From Escherichia phage EP01: a DNA stretch of 64,000 nucleotides. The translations under genes were made by a program, and so were the position numbers. Of this stretch, positions 89 to 58,544 are shown piece by piece (position 1 is the first letter of the stretch; each line of letters starts with the position of its first letter). The notes below the pieces were generated by a model, which ran no database searches, was not told where the DNA came from, and saw only the letters and a program-made list of their open reading frames with translations. The stretch lies in sequence record OM135583.1; one strand, given 5' to 3'.

Positions 89-898
89 ATGCTTAAAGAA
101 CAACTGATTGCTGAAGCGCAAAAAATTGATGCTTCCGTTGCTCTTGATAGTATTTTCGAATCAGTTAATATTTCTCCGGAAGCAAAAGAAACTTTCGGCA
201 CTGTATTCGAAGCTACCGTCAAGCAGCACGCCGTTAAATTAGCTGAATCTCATATCGCTAAAATTGCTGAAAAAGCAGAAGAAGAAGTAGAAAAAAATAA
301 AGAAGAAGCCGAAGAAAAAGCTGAGAAGAAAATCGCTGAGCAAGCTTCTAAATTCATCGACCATCTTGCGAAAGAATGGCTCGCTGAAAATAAATTAGCA
401 GTTGATAAAGGCATCAAAGCCGAACTGTTTGAATCCATGCTTGGTGGATTAAAAGAGCTCTTTGTTGAACACAACGTTGTTGTTCCAGAAGAATCAGTTG
501 ATGTTGTGGCTGAAATGGAAGAAGAGCTGCAAGAACATAAAGAAGAATCAGCTCGTCTGTTCGAAGAACTCAATATGCGCGACGCATATATCAATTATGT
601 GCAGCGTGAAGTGGCATTGAGCGAAAGTACTAAAGATCTGACTGAGTCTCAAAAAGAAAAAGTCTCTGCTCTGGTCGAAGGTATGGATTATTCAGATGAA
701 TTCTCAAATAAATTGAGTGCCATCGTAGAAATGGTGAAGAAGTCTAATAAAGATGAAAGCACTATTACTGAGGGTATAAATACTCCTGATACTGAAGCAG
801 CCGGACTGAATTTCGTCACTGAAGCTGTAGAAGATAAAACTGCACCTGGTGCAGAAGATATTGTAAGTGTATATGCGAAAGTCGCATCTCGTTTCTAA
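89..898 (+). CDS. 22: prohead core scaffolding protein gp22
   Basis: 269 aa, acidic Glu/Lys-rich coiled-coil-like protein directly upstream of major capsid gene; SD ACAGGA; same length as T4 gp22. Confidence 0.9.
   Translation: MLKEQLIAEAQKIDASVALDSIFESVNISPEAKETFGTVFEATVKQHAVKLAESHIAKIAEKAEEEVEKNKEEAEEKAEKKIAEQASKFIDHLAKEWLAENKLAVDKGIKAELFESMLGGLKELFVEHNVVVPEESVDVVAEMEEELQEHKEESARLFEELNMRDAYINYVQREVALSESTKDLTESQKEKVSALVEGMDYSDEFSNKLSAIVEMVKKSNKDESTITEGINTPDTEAAGLNFVTEAVEDKTAPGAEDIVSVYAKVASRF
775..782 (+). promoter_or_regulatory. late promoter TATAAATA for gene 23 (inside the 3' end of gene 22)
   Basis: Exact TATAAATACTCC about 135 nt upstream of the gene 23 ATG. Confidence 0.6.
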
Positions 899-916: not shown

Positions 917-2482
917 ATGACTATCAAAACTAAAGCTGAACTTTTGAACAAATGGAAGCCATTACTGGAAGGTGAAGGTTTACCGGAAATTGCTAATAGC
1001 AAACAAGCGATTATCGCTAAAATCTTTGAAAACCAGGAAAAAGATTTCCAGACAGCTCCAGAGTACAAAGACGAAAAAATCGCTCAGGCGTTCGGTTCTT
1101 TCTTAACAGAAGCTGAAATCGGTGGTGACCACGGTTACAATGCTACTAACATCGCTGCAGGTCAGACTTCTGGCGCAGTAACTCAGATTGGCCCAGCTGT
1201 TATGGGTATGGTACGTCGTGCTATTCCTAACCTGATTGCTTTCGATATTTGCGGTGTTCAGCCGATGAATAGCCCGACCGGTCAGGTATTCGCACTGCGC
1301 GCAGTATATGGTAAAGACCCAATCGCTTCCGGCGCTAAAGAAGCATTCCACCCAATGTATGGTCCAGATGCAATGTTCTCTGGTCAGGGTGCTGCTAAGA
1401 AATTCGCTGCTTTGAAAGCAAGTGATACTCTTGAAGTTGGAACTATTTACACCCACTTCTTCCAGGACACTGGTACTGTGTATCTGCAAGCTACAGAAGC
1501 TAAACAAATTGATTCCGCTGCATCTGACGCAGACAAATTAGATGCTGAAATTAAGAAACAAATGGAAGCTGGTGTACTGGTAGAAATCGCTGAAGGTATG
1601 GCTACTTCTATCGCTGAACTTCAGGAAAGTTTCAACGGTTCTACCGATAACCCATGGAATGAAATGGGCTTCCGTATCGATAAACAAGTTATCGAAGCTA
1701 AATCTCGCCAGCTGAAAGCTGCTTACTCTATCGAATTAGCACAAGACCTCCGCGCTGTTCACGGTATGGATGCTGATGCTGAACTGTCTGGTATTCTGGC
1801 TACCGAAATCATGCTGGAAATTAACCGTGAAGTTGTTGATTGGATTAACTACTCAGCTCAGGTTGGTAAATCTGGTATGACCCTGACTCCAGGTTCTAAA
1901 GCTGGTGTATTTGACTTCCAGGATCCGATTGATATTCGTGGTGCTCGCTGGGCGGGTGAATCCTTTAAAGCTCTGCTGTTCCAGATTGACAAAGAAGCAG
2001 TTGAAATTGCTCGTCAGACCGGTCGTGGTGAAGGTAACTTCATTATCGCTTCCCGTAACGTAGTTAACGTTCTGGCTTCAGTTGATACTGGCATTTCTTA
2101 TGCTGCACAGGGTCTGGCCACCGGCTTTAACACTGATACTACCAAGTCAGTATTTGCTGGTGTTCTGGGTGGTAAATACCGTGTATATATCGACCAGTAT
2201 GCTAAACAGGATTATTTCACCGTAGGTTATAAAGGTCCGAACGAAATGGATGCAGGTATTTACTATGCTCCATATGTAGCTCTGACTCCGCTGCGTGGTT
2301 CCGATCCGAAGAACTTCCAACCAGTAATGGGATTCAAAACTCGTTACGGTATCGGTATCAACCCATTTGCAGAATCCGCTGCTCAGGCTCCGGCTTCTCG
2401 CATCCAGAGCGGTATGCCTTCTATTCTGAATAGCCTTGGTAAAAACGCTTACTTCCGCCGTGTATATGTTAAAGGTATCTAA
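917..2482 (+). CDS. 23: major capsid protein gp23
   Basis: 521 aa; sequence recognised as T4-type gp23 (MTIKTKAELLNKWKPLLEGEG...); followed by strong terminator. Confidence 0.97.
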   Translation: MTIKTKAELLNKWKPLLEGEGLPEIANSKQAIIAKIFENQEKDFQTAPEYKDEKIAQAFGSFLTEAEIGGDHGYNATNIAAGQTSGAVTQIGPAVMGMVRRAIPNLIAFDICGVQPMNSPTGQVFALRAVYGKDPIASGAKEAFHPMYGPDAMFSGQGAAKKFAALKASDTLEVGTIYTHFFQDTGTVYLQATEAKQIDSAASDADKLDAEIKKQMEAGVLVEIAEGMATSIAELQESFNGSTDNPWNEMGFRIDKQVIEAKSRQLKAAYSIELAQDLRAVHGMDADAELSGILATEIMLEINREVVDWINYSAQVGKSGMTLTPGSKAGVFDFQDPIDIRGARWAGESFKALLFQIDKEAVEIARQTGRGEGNFIIASRNVVNVLASVDTGISYAAQGLATGFNTDTTKSVFAGVLGGKYRVYIDQYAKQDYFTVGYKGPNEMDAGIYYAPYVALTPLRGSDPKNFQPVMGFKTRYGIGINPFAESAAQAPASRIQSGMPSILNSLGKNAYFRRVYVKGI

Positions 2483-2498
2483 GATATAACCTTATTAT

Positions 2499-2527
2499 GG
2501 GAGACTTCGGTCTCCCATTCTTGTTTC
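2499..2527 (+). terminator. rho-independent terminator after gene 23
   Basis: GGGAGAC-UUCG-GUCUCCC hairpin followed by a T-rich tract. Confidence 0.75.
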
Positions 2528-2531
2528 TATA

Positions 2532-2798
2532 CTACGCAATCTTAACTCGACGGTTGATGATGTCACGGAAGTCAATACGATTTTCTTGGATTTTCAGCCA
2601 GTTACCAGATTTGTCTTTGGTATGGGTAGAATATTCACCGTTCCACCAGAAGTCAGTAGCATAAGCCATGGTTTCATATTTCTTAACTAGGGCATTCACT
2701 GCATTACCGTTAGGATTGGAACCATATTTTTCTACCAGGGCTTTGATGTCTTTATCAAGAGCGGACAGAGTAGTACGAATAAAGTTTAACTTGTTCAT
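2532..2798 (-). CDS. hypothetical protein, 88 aa, reverse-oriented in the 23-24 gap
   Basis: ORF on - strand; ATG at 2798 preceded by GAGGAG SD (2806-2811) with 7-nt spacing; the track's upstream start at 2813 overlaps the SD; Trp-rich motif FWWNGEY; no family recognised. Confidence 0.55.
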   Translation of the reverse strand: MNKLNFIRTTLSALDKDIKALVEKYGSNPNGNAVNALVKKYETMAYATDFWWNGEYSTHTKDKSGNWLKIQENRIDFRDIINRRVKIA

Positions 2799-2864
2799 TT
2801 TTAATCTCCTCATGTTTTTGATAGGTCTATAGTAACATGTGATAACCTTGCTGTAAACAACTTT

Positions 2865-2872
2865 TATAAATA
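2865..2872 (+). promoter_or_regulatory. late promoter TATAAATA for gene 24
   Basis: Exact motif about 30 nt before the gene 24 ATG. Confidence 0.65.
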
Positions 2873-2900
2873 AACATATACTCTCAACAAGGAAAGCGCA

Positions 2901-4184
2901 ATGGCTAAAATCAACGAACTTCTGCGCGAATCAACCACAACGAATAGCAACTCAATCGGTCGCCCAAATCTCGTTGCTTTGACTCGCGCTACCACTAAAT
3001 TAATATATTCTGACATTGTAGCAACGCAAAGAACTAATCAACCTGTTGCTGCTTTTTATGGTATCAAATACCTTAACCCAGATAATGAATTTACATTTAA
3101 AACTGGTGCTACTTACGCTGGCGAAGCTGGATATGTAGACCGAGAACAAATCACAGAATTAACAGAAGAGTCTAAATTAACTCTCAATAAAGGCGATTTA
3201 TTCAAATATAATAATATCGTTTATAAAGTATTAGAAGATACACCATTTGCTACCATTGAAGAAAGCGATTTAGAATTAGCTCTTCAGATTGCAATTGTTC
3301 TTTTAAAGGTTCGCCTATTTTCTGACGCAGCGTCAACAAGCAAATTTGAAAGCTCTGATAGCGAAATTGCTGATGCTAGATTCCAGATTAATAAATGGCA
3401 AACCGCAGTTAAATCTCGTAAACTTAAAACTGGTATCACAGTTGAATTAGCACAAGATTTAGAAGCAAATGGATTCGATGCTCCTAATTTCTTGGAAGAT
3501 TTGCTTGCAACTGAAATGGCGGATGAAATCAATAAAGATATTCTACAGTCTTTGATTACAGTATCAAAACGCTATAAAGTTACAGGAATTACTGATACCG
3601 GATTCATTGATTTGAGTTATGCATCTGCACCTGAAGCTGGTCGTTCATTATACCGAATGGTATGTGAAATGGTTTCGCATATCCAAAAAGAATCAACTTA
3701 TACAGCAACGTTCTGCGTTGCTTCAGCTCGTGCCGCTGCGATTCTTGCTGCATCAGGTTGGTTAAAACATAAACCAGAAGATGATAAATATCTTTCACAA
3801 AATGCCTACGGGTTCTTAGCTAATGGTTTACCGCTTTATTGCGATACTAACAGCCCATTAGATTATGTAATCGTTGGCGTGGTAGAAAATATTGGCGAAA
3901 AAGAAATTGTTGGATCAATTTTCTATGCCCCGTATACAGAAGGTCTGGACTTAGATGACCCTGAACATGTAGGTGCATTTAAAGTTGTAGTTGATCCAGA
4001 AAGTTTGCAGCCATCTATTGGTTTATTAGTTAGATATGCTTTATCTGCAAATCCTTACACTGTAGCAAAAGATGAAAAAGAAGCAAGAATAATTGATGGT
4101 GGAGACATGGATAAAATGGCGGGTCGTTCAGATTTGTCTGTTTTATTAGGTGTTAAGCTACCAAAAATTATCGTTGATGAATAA
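2901..4184 (+). CDS. 24: head vertex protein gp24
   Basis: 427 aa, gp23 paralogue (shared C-terminal region), late promoter upstream, T4 gene order. Confidence 0.95.
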   Translation: MAKINELLRESTTTNSNSIGRPNLVALTRATTKLIYSDIVATQRTNQPVAAFYGIKYLNPDNEFTFKTGATYAGEAGYVDREQITELTEESKLTLNKGDLFKYNNIVYKVLEDTPFATIEESDLELALQIAIVLLKVRLFSDAASTSKFESSDSEIADARFQINKWQTAVKSRKLKTGITVELAQDLEANGFDAPNFLEDLLATEMADEINKDILQSLITVSKRYKVTGITDTGFIDLSYASAPEAGRSLYRMVCEMVSHIQKESTYTATFCVASARAAAILAASGWLKHKPEDDKYLSQNAYGFLANGLPLYCDTNSPLDYVIVGVVENIGEKEIVGSIFYAPYTEGLDLDDPEHVGAFKVVVDPESLQPSIGLLVRYALSANPYTVAKDEKEARIIDGGDMDKMAGRSDLSVLLGVKLPKIIVDE

Positions 4185-4190
4185 AACAAA

Positions 4191-4212
4191 GGGACCGAAA
4201 GGTCCCTTTTTA
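4191..4212. terminator. bidirectional terminator between gene 24 and rnlB
   Basis: GGGACC-GAAA-GGUCCC hairpin flanked by A-run and T-run; convergent genes. Confidence 0.75.
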
Positions 4213-4213
4213 T

Positions 4214-5218
4214 TTAACTTACCAATTCAATCCAAGCCGGACGAAGTACATCTTGTACCATTTTAACTAATTCCTTTTTAATCAAAGAAGGATTATCAGC
4301 TTGAGTTAGAGTAATACCTTCACGAGAAGTTTCTTCCAAAATATCTTGCACAGTTAGTCCCATCACCTTTCCAAAATCCTTCGGACCAATTTCGCCAATT
4401 TTAGAAATAACGTTATTTACTCGGTTCAGTGTAACGTAGCAAGCTAAAATTCCCAGCAATTTATTATCAGCTTCTGACAGCTCAACTTTAGCTTTAATAG
4501 GCTTATCAGACTTTTTCTTTTCACTAAATTTAGAGTTCTTGCATTTAATCGCTACGCGATTGCCATTAGGCATCCAAGAAGGATAACAAGGTTTCAATAC
4601 ATAACCTTCAGCGGTAAATACTTCGCCTTTTGCTTCAGCATTCCAAACGCATTTATTTGCATCAACTAATCCAGCATGGTCTACTGTAAAATTATAATCC
4701 TGGACGACAGAATCTAAATCATTTGGCAATTTAATAAGTTCTTCAAATTTACCACGACCCAAAAGTGGAGCCATTTTAAATTTGAATGTATTACAGAATG
4801 ATTCCATCATATAATCATCGACATAAGTCACATCACCACTTTCTGTAGTAACAATAATGTCAAATACATAAAAATCTTTATCACCATAATCGACATTCTT
4901 CTGAATGCCAGGTCCAGCGAATTCGCCGAAGACTTGATAAGATACAACTGCTGAAGTTTCCATAATATCTTGTACTGCTTTAATGGAATCAGCGTAATTC
5001 TTTAGAATAATTTCATACCCAAAGAAATCTTCAGCAGGAAGAATCGGTCCAGTACGTTTAGCACAAGTTGCTTTATCGCGTTCAATAATCAGTGAGAAAT
5101 TTGTACCATGAATCTTTTCACGAGCTACCCATTCGCCGCCAGTCAATCCTAAACTATAAAGTTTTTCAATGAATTTAGAATTATAATGATTTTCAAGACT
5201 GCTATACTTTTTAAACAT
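4214..5218 (-). CDS. rnlB: RNA ligase 2 (Rnl2)
   Basis: 334 aa; nucleotidyltransferase motif I KIHGTNFS; T4 position and size. Confidence 0.9.
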
Positions 5219-5796: not shown

Positions 5797-6648
5797 TTAT
5801 GGATAGGTATAGATGATACCAGTTTCTAAAGCAGTTTTATGAATGATGTATCCATTGCGCGATTCTTGAACATCAACTTCTGGATAGTCTTTCATCATCT
5901 TCTGAAGAGTGTAACGATGCAAGTAATATTTACTATCTGGGTCGTCAGTTTTCCAATCTTTACCTTCTTCGGTCATTTTTTGGATTTCATCCATAACCCA
6001 CCAACCGCACCAGATATAAGCTGAAGTACGATGTGGAAGAGGATGAACATAAGGTAATTCACCTTCTGGTTCTTGAGCAACTTTATCATTCACAGTCAGT
6101 GATACTTCATTCGAAGTAACTTCCTTTGCATCATAATCTGTCGCGGTTACTTGAGCCACACACTTAATTGTTTTAACTCCGCTTGTGGAAGGAGTGTAAT
6201 TAAATGTAGCGGAAGTTGCTTCACTAACAGGAGAATCATCTACATACCATTGATATGTAGCAGATGCGCCTGATGGTTGAGAAGCTAAGGCAGCAGTAAA
6301 TTGAACTGGGGTTCCAATTACTCCAGCAGCAGGACTAGCAGGAGTTACAGCTAAGGTAGTTGTCTGTGTCTTATTTTGAACTGTGATAGTTGTAGAAGCT
6401 TCTGCTGTTTCAGCATCAGAATCAGGAATAGTATTTGTTGCAACTACTTTAATAGTCTTTTGACCGGCAGGTCCTTTTAATACATAATCAAAAGTTGCTT
6501 CAGCTCCATCTTGTGGAACATTATCTACAGTCCAAGCATAGGTAATAGTTCCACCTCCAGTTTCACCACTGGGTGTAGCAGTAAACTGCTGAGTCTGATC
6601 TATAACTCCAGTAGGTGTTTTAGGAGTTATATCAACTGTAAAAGCCAT
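5797..6648 (-). CDS. hoc: head outer capsid protein Hoc, short 2-Ig-domain form
   Basis: 283 aa; N-terminal Ig-like domains and C-terminal capsid-binding region (PYVHPLPHRTSAYIWCGWWVMDEIQ...) recognised as Hoc; shorter than T4 Hoc (376 aa). Confidence 0.9.
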   Translation of the reverse strand: MAFTVDITPKTPTGVIDQTQQFTATPSGETGGGTITYAWTVDNVPQDGAEATFDYVLKGPAGQKTIKVVATNTIPDSDAETAEASTTITVQNKTQTTTLAVTPASPAAGVIGTPVQFTAALASQPSGASATYQWYVDDSPVSEATSATFNYTPSTSGVKTIKCVAQVTATDYDAKEVTSNEVSLTVNDKVAQEPEGELPYVHPLPHRTSAYIWCGWWVMDEIQKMTEEGKDWKTDDPDSKYYLHRYTLQKMMKDYPEVDVQESRNGYIIHKTALETGIIYTYP

Positions 6649-7387: not shown

Positions 7388-8005
7388 ATGTATCACTTTG
7401 TATATGAAACGACAAATCTAATAAATGGTAAAAAGTATATAGGAAAACACTCTACTGATGACTTGAATGATGGCTACCTTGGTTCCGGTAAGGCAATTCA
7501 GCAGGCTATAAAGAAATATGGTGAAAAGAATTTCTCTAGAACAATACTAAAAGAGTTTAAAACTTCCGAAGAAGCGTACATGTATGAAGAAGAAATTATA
7601 ACTCCTGAACTAATAAAAAGCAAAAATTATTATAATATGAAACCTGGTGGAATTGGTGGAATTGTTATGACTGCAGAGGTTATAGCAAAGATGAAAGAAT
7701 CTTCCGCTAAGAGATTTGAAAACTCACCGGGCACGGTATTAGGTACAACTTGTTACACCAATGGAACTAAAAATATTTTTATTAAACCCGGAGAACTTGT
7801 TCCAGAAGGATTTGTAAAAGGGATGGTTCATCTTAATAGAAAGTCCAGAAAAGGATGTAAAGTCAAACCGACTACCACAGGAACTTTTTGGGTCAATAAT
7901 GGAGCAATAAATAAATTAATACAACCAGACGGTATTATTCCCGATGGATTTATTAAAGGTCGTCTCATGAAAAGAGACTCTAAAGGCAAATTTAGTAAGG
8001 CATAA
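7388..8005 (+). CDS. segE: GIY-YIG homing endonuclease SegE
   Basis: 205 aa; GIY-YIG motif YHFVYETTNLINGKKYIGK; free-standing between inh and uvsW as in T4. Confidence 0.85.
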   Translation: MYHFVYETTNLINGKKYIGKHSTDDLNDGYLGSGKAIQQAIKKYGEKNFSRTILKEFKTSEEAYMYEEEIITPELIKSKNYYNMKPGGIGGIVMTAEVIAKMKESSAKRFENSPGTVLGTTCYTNGTKNIFIKPGELVPEGFVKGMVHLNRKSRKGCKVKPTTTGTFWVNNGAINKLIQPDGIIPDGFIKGRLMKRDSKGKFSKA

Positions 8006-42343: not shown

Positions 42344-42373
42344 ATAGTACCACAGTATGCTTTGGTTGTAAAC
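42344..42373 (-). promoter_or_regulatory. T4-type early promoter
   Basis: GTTTAC, 18-nt spacer, TACTAT; part of a 73-bp element identical to 58506-58578. Confidence 0.6.
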
Positions 42374-58514: not shown

Positions 58515-58544
58515 ATAGTACCACAGTATGCTTTGGTTGTAAAC
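58515..58544 (-). promoter_or_regulatory. T4-type early promoter upstream of motA
   Basis: GTTTAC, 18-nt spacer, TACTAT; inside a 73-bp element identical to 42335-42407. Confidence 0.6.

Follow-up and report, generated by a model that had tools for sequence, protein, structure and literature searches.

The interval between genes 23 and 24

The window analysed here is the whole 64,000-nucleotide stretch of Escherichia phage EP01 (sequence record OM135583.1), a virulent Tequatrovirus. Genes 22, 23 and 24 lie on its plus strand and are followed by rnlB on the minus strand. Between the last base of gene 23 (2482) and the first base of gene 24 (2901) lie 418 bp (2483-2900), and this slot holds a minus-strand reading frame, referred to below as ORF88. 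The features of the region are as follows.

89-898, plus strand: gene 22, upstream of gene 23
917-2482, plus strand: gene 23, major capsid protein (521-aa ORF), the left border of the slot
2449-2905, no strand assigned: Dhakavirus (JS98)-like tract, an intergenic cassette with T4-like flanks (from sliding identity and a mismatch map)
2497-2518, both strands: hairpin ATGGGAGAC-TTCG-GTCTCCCAT, common to the convergent gene 23 and ORF88 transcripts (terminator scan)
2532-2798 including the stop codon, minus strand: ORF88, an 88-aa basic protein of the family PHROG 6003 (ORF listing, profile match, dN/dS and AlphaFold model)
2806-2811, minus strand: Shine-Dalgarno sequence GAGGAG, 7 nt upstream of the ORF88 ATG (read from the sequence)
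2829-2858, minus strand: predicted early (sigma-70) promoter of the T4 type (consensus scan and pattern search)
2865-2872, plus strand: late promoter of gene 24, TATAAATA (read from the sequence)
2901-4184, plus strand: gene 24, capsid vertex protein, bounding the slot on the right

The gene 23 product is annotated as the major head protein in the record of phage vB_EcoM-G28, which, together with Escherichia phages GEP001, KIT06 and HZ_ZJUN4, is 100% identical to the window from 2400 to 2950. Over 1900-3500, the identity of the window to phage W143 is 99.4%. The motif TATAAATA before gene 24, which we take to be the late promoter of that gene on the strength of the T4 late-promoter consensus, is kept in all of the leaders that were aligned.

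The initial annotation of this DNA had placed about 420 bp between genes 23 and 24, with a minus-strand ORF at 2532-2798, a strong GAGGAG Shine-Dalgarno sequence and a possible GTTTAC-type early promoter at about 2829-2858. The measured spacing agrees with this description, as do the ORF, which encodes 88 aa with exactly the sequence that had been quoted, the ribosome-binding site ahead of the ATG, and the promoter, on which the consensus scan and the pattern search concur.

The RNA hairpin at 2497-2518 has a folding energy of -15.2 kcal/mol on the plus strand and -16.1 kcal/mol on the minus strand (z-scores of -3.5 and -4.3). A U tract follows the hairpin only on the plus strand, and the minus-strand tail reads CAUAAUAAGG. 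The structure is a terminator for the plus strand and a stable 3' hairpin for the minus strand, where termination of the transcript is uncertain because there is no U tract. A hairpin is found at the same position in VR26, L021, T4 and HY01, with the pairing kept and the stem sequences differing.

ORF88 and the PHROG 6003 family

Is ORF88 a gene? A length of 88 aa proves nothing in this respect, because longer chance ORFs exist in this A+T-rich genome, including two frames, 114 and 134 aa long, on the strand opposite genes 22 and 23. ORF88 nonetheless stands above chance on account of its dN/dS ratio, a position kept in four genera, an early-promoter motif with a count of 13 against 0.84 expected, and a confident fold. 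Pairwise Nei-Gojobori estimates of dN/dS were 0.03-0.13 for close and moderately distant pairs, and the ORFs of the window and JS98 differ by eight synonymous changes and one non-synonymous change. ORF88 is a real protein-coding gene under purifying selection, and its product has a compact fold that is predicted with confidence. A 93-aa version starting from the ATG at 2813 was rejected since it covers the ribosome-binding site and is used by no homologue.

Residues 1-88 of the protein match positions 1-88 of the 90 positions of the PHROG 6003 profile (E 5.8e-50), which is also matched by the proteins P0011, P0013, P0022 and P0025 and by the L024 ORF (E 1e-17 to 1e-45). Relatives of ORF88 were found by tblastn in 237 phage records; the carriers of the family comprise 236 records of enterobacterial T-even phages plus a few unrelated phages. 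The T-even relatives inspected, which came from four genera, always lie in the 23/24 slot and always on the same strand as ORF88. They occur in Dhakavirus, Gaprivervirus, Mosigvirus and some Tequatrovirus genomes as hypothetical proteins, an annotation that the family carries in more than 200 genomes. Examples are orf173 of JS98 (99% identical to ORF88), EpJS10_0170 of JS10, VR7ORF190c and PhAPEC2_170. Members in Dhakavirus, Gaprivervirus and Mosigvirus share the slot and strand of ORF88, which does not differ in kind from the other members of PHROG 6003 and is an imported cassette in a Tequatrovirus backbone. A literature search with locus tags and the PHROG number found no paper naming the family, and no paralogue of ORF88 was found elsewhere within the window.

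The protein has a mass of 10.25 kDa and a pI of 9.6, and it contains no cysteine. Word-indexed and exhaustive HMMER searches of 1.84 billion representatives gave a homologue set of 27 clusters, and 23 sequences were aligned. Identities within this alignment range from 30 to 98%, indels are nearly absent, and K3, F6, N30-G31-N32 and Q71 are invariant. An AlphaFold2 model made with the homologue alignment (pLDDT 94.6, pTM 0.81) predicts a helix (3-25), the NGN loop, a second helix (31-48), a beta hairpin (52-61/67-71) and a third helix (77-87).

The initial annotation had found no motif in the protein that it could place. In keeping with this, ORF88 has no match in Pfam or NCBIfam, none of the 23 family members has a match in Pfam, and the only family to which the protein belongs, PHROG 6003, is one without known function. 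Homology and structure searches thus returned a widespread family but no function from Pfam, the PDB or viral folds: comparison of the model with PDB and viral folds gave no match indicating a function, and comparison with solved anti-defence and host-takeover proteins gave no fold similarity.

Several candidate matches were discarded. Weak Pfam matches to DUF5380, Ca_bind_SSO6904 and DUF4859 were far below the cut-offs and inconsistent between members of the family, and the apparent similarity of P0009 (1633 aa) and P0012 (772 aa) came from summed weak matches to Ig-like repeats. P0010, a 160-aa prediction from a metagenome, was rejected as chimeric. On its 701-nt contig, a stretch of 34 residues that equals residues 31-64 of ORF88 exactly or almost exactly is joined to an unrelated remainder, and the prediction is probably an assembly artefact.

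Beyond the T-even phages, relatives with 30-44% identity, all of them matching PHROG 6003, were found in four settings. In Acinetobacter phage ABPH49 (Vequintavirinae), the homologue lies within a long array of small hypothetical genes that all point the same way. In a contig of 46-50 kb, it adjoins a primase-polymerase gene near NinX- and Ea22-like genes, and in a 35-kb contig it stands alongside a T7 0.6-like gene; a 64-kb viral contig carries a further homologue. Inspection of these four contexts revealed no capsid genes and no adjoining homing endonuclease. The distant contexts have no neighbour genes in common, except between related Acinetobacter-type phages. A pattern-based scan of representative bacterial genomes, which is an insensitive approach, found no prophage copy or relative.

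The early promoter, segD and exchange of the slot's contents

On the minus strand, the predicted promoter of ORF88 is made up of GTTTAC (2858-2853), a 17-nt spacer and TACTAT (2834-2829), with a TG one base before the -10 hexamer. It passes a T4-type pattern consisting of a GTTTAC-type -35 hexamer, a spacer of 16-18 nt and a TAnnnT -10 hexamer, and transcription would start near 2822. The pattern GTTTACN{16,18}TANNAT has 13 matches in the 64-kb window versus 0.84 expected from shuffles, and the count of 13 was reached in 0 of 100 shuffles. Every one of the 13 lies on the minus strand, and TGn directly precedes the -10 hexamer in most of them. T4 early promoters bear GTTTAC, and T4 early genes share one strand. 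By its motif, the putative ORF88 promoter belongs to the phage's own class of early promoters. With T4 early promoters it shares the GTTTAC -35 hexamer, the 17-nt spacing, a TG-extended TAnnAT -10 hexamer, location on the minus strand and A+T-rich upstream DNA. Unlike them, it has as its A+T-rich upstream DNA a late promoter read in reverse complement, and the site itself is a prediction from the sequence. Early-motif matches on the minus strand at 42344-42373 and 58515-58544 are identical 30-mers that lie 16 kb apart.

Nine leaders were aligned, drawn from four genera and from T4 segD, namely those of the window, JS98, two Dhakavirus-like contigs, F2, VR26 and a second Gaprivervirus, Shf125875 (Mosigvirus) and T4 segD. 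The elements follow one another in the order reverse complement of the gene 24 late promoter, (G/A)TTTACA, 17-nt spacer, -10 hexamer, GGAG-type ribosome-binding site and ATG. The -10 region takes the form TGnTA(C/T)(T/A)AT or CATAAT, and the GAGGAG site is kept in JS98, F2 and L017/L018, with GGAG-type sites in VR26, Shf125875 and T4 segD. The hexamers are kept across genera and the spacer sequence varies, which is the pattern expected of a functional promoter.

The late promoter TATAAATA is 6 bp from the early -35 hexamer, so that the two promoters stand back to back. An overlap between them had been proposed in the initial annotation. This is correct for the upstream zone of the early promoter, beneath which the plus-strand late promoter lies, but the two cores abut without overlapping.

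Given the convergent transcription units and the back-to-back promoters, one could suppose that the reading frame is incidental and that what matters is the antisense transcript or the promoter itself, which might interfere with read-through from gene 23 or shield the late promoter of gene 24 early in infection. We regard this as highly improbable, given the strong purifying selection on the protein sequence, the confident fold, and the existence, in unrelated genomic contexts, of homologues that are recognisable at the protein level and whose synonymous divergence is saturated.

The T4 record agrees with the initial annotation in having segD between genes 23 and 24, and shows it to be encoded on the reverse strand; ORF88 occupies the same slot. 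Edgell et al. (2010) discuss the reverse orientation of segD, for which they could find no specific promoter (PMC2988022). The T4 segD leader aligns with that of ORF88 and reads ATTTACA-17-TGATATTAT. Time-course omics of T4 infection assigned segD an early RNA and a middle protein, and SegD peptides were quantified (Wolfram-Schauerte et al. 2022; PMC9697503 supplement); neither the T-even genus names searched for nor RB69 is mentioned in the expression-atlas paper. It is likely that the promoter described here for ORF88 is the segD promoter in T4. Since segD is antisense, has a homologous leader and yields early RNA, an early antisense gene in this slot is the condition in T4 too. Thus, the suggestion that such an arrangement is unusual did not hold: with T4 segD antisense in the same slot, the layout is ordinary for T-even phages, and the relatives of ORF88 are arranged likewise in four genera.

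The T4 segD locus resembles that of ORF88 in its slot, its minus-strand orientation, its homologous leader and the hairpin that it has in common with gene 23. The products differ: SegD is a GIY-YIG endonuclease of about 220 aa, compared with 88 aa for ORF88, and the two proteins are unrelated. The idea that ORF88 is a remnant of segD or of another GIY-YIG gene was rejected, as the hhalign probability between the family and T4 SegD was about 1% and there is no GIY-YIG domain.

Two observations on the free-standing endonucleases of T4 may be added. T4 SegD aligns with F2 SegD, to which it is 59% identical, from a second in-frame ATG (MKYLIY...) 9 nt inside the annotated start (3722-3733 in our T4 segment, L004); if this ATG is used, the GGAG sequence is 11 nt upstream, versus the 2 nt remarked on by Edgell et al. 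The window has segE at 7388-8005 (plus strand), with a protein 98% identical to T4 SegE, and lacks segD; one of the T4 free-standing endonucleases is therefore kept in the region.

Comparison of the 23/24 gap across T-even genomes, with the state of the slot read from the span of matches to a query of window positions 1900-3500, distinguished four states. Neither gene occupies the slot in HY01, RB3, numerous further Tequatroviruses and the T4-like phages of Klebsiella; an empty slot is a gap of about 83 bp that has a hairpin and a late promoter and lacks GTTTAC, and HY01 has no early promoter there. The slot holds segD only in T4, PP01 and PYPS2T, and ORF88 only in the group to which the window belongs and in Dhakavirus, Gaprivervirus and Mosigvirus. 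It holds both genes in F2, LF82 phages and others. In F2, the order on the minus strand is promoter, ORF88, 3 nt, segD and hairpin. The junction of ORF88, 3 nt and segD is present in 38 records, and ORF88 is found without segD in 48 of 86 close relatives. The existence of the F2-type tandem means that ORF88 and segD are not alternatives by descent.

It is possible that ORF88 is a functional partner of the segD cassette, serving for example as its helper, its regulator or the cargo that segD spreads, and that the copy in the window is the leftover of a segD-bearing element. The 38 records in which segD begins 3 nt past the ORF88 stop codon, forming one promoter-to-terminator unit, are what such a partnership would look like, and the homology of the T4 segD and ORF88 leaders and the passage of the cassette across genus borders fit it as well. 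We nevertheless consider it quite unlikely. Most carriers of ORF88 do without segD, namely the 48 relatives just mentioned together with VR26 (Gaprivervirus) and Shf125875 (Mosigvirus), segD is kept in T4 without ORF88, and no endonuclease gene adjoins any of the four homologues that were inspected in unrelated phages. As noted above, ORF88 has no sequence relation to SegD. Moreover, SegD does not home, according to Sokolov et al. (2018; cited in PMC9523250). The flanks of the slot in phage F2 were checked for Dhakavirus origin, as a sign of homing co-conversion, and none was seen.

The contents of the slot have moved between phages. The window is about 96% identical to T4 in nucleotide sequence over 1-2490 and 2852-4278 and cannot be aligned with it in between. 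Sliding comparison with JS98 gives 96-98% identity from about 2450 to 2930, as against 55-91% in genes 23 and 24. In the mismatch maps, the window tracks T4 and HY01 up to 2482 and again from 2899, with no mismatch to T4 from 2899 to 3082, and it tracks JS98 between these points; the switch points fall within the final codons of gene 23 and the opening codons of gene 24. Because of this identity profile and these switch points, the whole cassette, including the late promoter and leader of gene 24, must have come from a Dhakavirus-like donor or from a pool common to both phages; over its length it is about 97% identical to JS98. The G+C content of the ORF88 unit is slightly off that of the window (39.7% versus 36.0%).

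The gene is dispensable, because most Tequatroviruses have an empty slot or segD in its place, the RB69 copy is frameshifted and the copy in phage 310Ecol104PP is truncated. The RB69 copy, which has an intact promoter and ribosome-binding site, contains two frameshifts and is annotated as ORF188c and ORF189c. Relative to the copy in Shigella phage Shf125875, the RB69 segment (L025, NC_004928, 6292-6532) has one insertion and one deletion.

With its own promoter, a terminator or hairpin at its end, presence or absence between conserved structural genes, lateral exchange and dispensability, ORF88 resembles morons and the plastic accessory ORFs that T4-like genomes carry, which are independent promoter-gene-terminator units set between conserved genes. 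The classical moron belongs to a temperate phage, is expressed from the prophage and benefits the lysogen. ORF88 is unlike it in that its phage is virulent and its expression is predicted to be early and lytic.

Possible roles of the ORF88 protein

What might the product of such a gene do? A role in head assembly, with the protein acting as a chaperone, a scaffold accessory or a regulator of gp23 or gp24, has location as the one point in its favour: every T-even carrier has the gene between genes 23 and 24. We think this very unlikely. The gene is on the opposite strand behind an early promoter, most Tequatroviruses lack it and in RB69 it is disrupted, yet all these phages build normal heads, and its homologues elsewhere sit among early-type genes. 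The setting of the homologues with 30-44% identity among small genes of early type argues that ORF88 is not related to the capsid.

In our preferred reading, to which we give a probability of about 0.6, the slot carries a dispensable and laterally exchanged minus-strand early-gene cassette encoding a protein that targets a macromolecule of the host or of the phage. The cassette would extend from the T4-type sigma-70 promoter (GTTTAC-17-TGnTACTAT) through the GAGGAG leader and the gene for an 88-aa alpha/beta protein to the gene 23 hairpin. Unmodified host RNA polymerase would transcribe ORF88 in the first minutes of infection, and this transcription would fade once late transcription converges on the gene. 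Where segD accompanies ORF88, it lies behind the same promoter, 3 nt downstream of the ORF. The product would be an accessory factor for host takeover or counter-defence rather than a component of the capsid. An early-acting accessory factor is suggested by the early timing, the dispensability, the mobility of the cassette as a unit and the small early genes that keep company with the homologues. The same four points, namely timing, dispensability, mobility and genomic company, are what would make the product host-directed, and a protein that is basic and helical might just as well have phage DNA or RNA as its target.

A more specific form of the latter possibility is that ORF88 encodes a phage-directed nucleic-acid-binding regulator that tunes early or late expression, for example at the back-to-back promoters of gene 24 and the ORF. 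The protein is small, basic (pI 9.6) and rich in helix, and its gene adjoins a divergent pair of early and late promoters. We consider this unlikely, since a search for a DNA-binding fold or motif detected none, homologues are present in unrelated phages that lack the 23/24 context, and most Tequatroviruses do without the gene despite having the same flanking genes 23 and 24 and a TATAAATA late promoter before gene 24.

The reading of ORF88 as an exchangeable early-gene cassette can be extended, tentatively and with much more doubt than confidence. PHROG 6003 may represent a new early effector, active in counter-defence or host takeover, that is carried on a portable promoter-gene-hairpin cassette and has hopped between T-even genera and on to unrelated phages. 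The same promoter would also be that of T4 segD, segD would have spread by lodging just downstream of the ORF, and T4 would derive from a cassette with both ORF88 and segD that later lost the ORF.

ORF88 is an uncharacterised member of the accessory early ORFs that occupy plastic slots in T4-like genomes. The findings do not overturn the current understanding of these genomes. The analysis has as by-products the description of four slot states, the import of a cassette across genera and a candidate promoter for T4 segD. If the preferred reading is correct, PHROG 6003 would be a concrete candidate for counter-defence and host-takeover screens. The conserved minus-strand early promoter would provide a simple explanation for the expression of T4 segD, despite a review that reported no such promoter. 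Moreover, the 23/24 gap would be a natural example of cassette swapping amid the most conserved structural operon, with a bearing on phylogenies and typing schemes that use gene 23 and its neighbourhood.

Some observations concern the capsid genes of these phages. Dhakavirus and Gaprivervirus have tandem copies of gene 24 (24a/24b), as in JS98 (L002, 2951-5485) and VR26 (L005, 1-2394), and the window, T4 and Mosigvirus have a single gene 24. In the Mosigvirus Shigella phage JK36 (MK962754), the matches to our 1601-nt query extend over 2451 bp, about 850 bp more, and a major capsid protein is annotated twice beneath them, which suggests an insertion in or beside gene 23. Hoc, encoded at 5797-6648 of the window (minus strand), has 283 aa versus 376 aa in T4, and its alignment indicates two Ig-like domains, not three, before the conserved C-terminal capsid-binding part; in the near-identical phage G28, the Hoc gene is annotated with a length of 1419 nt (about 472 aa).
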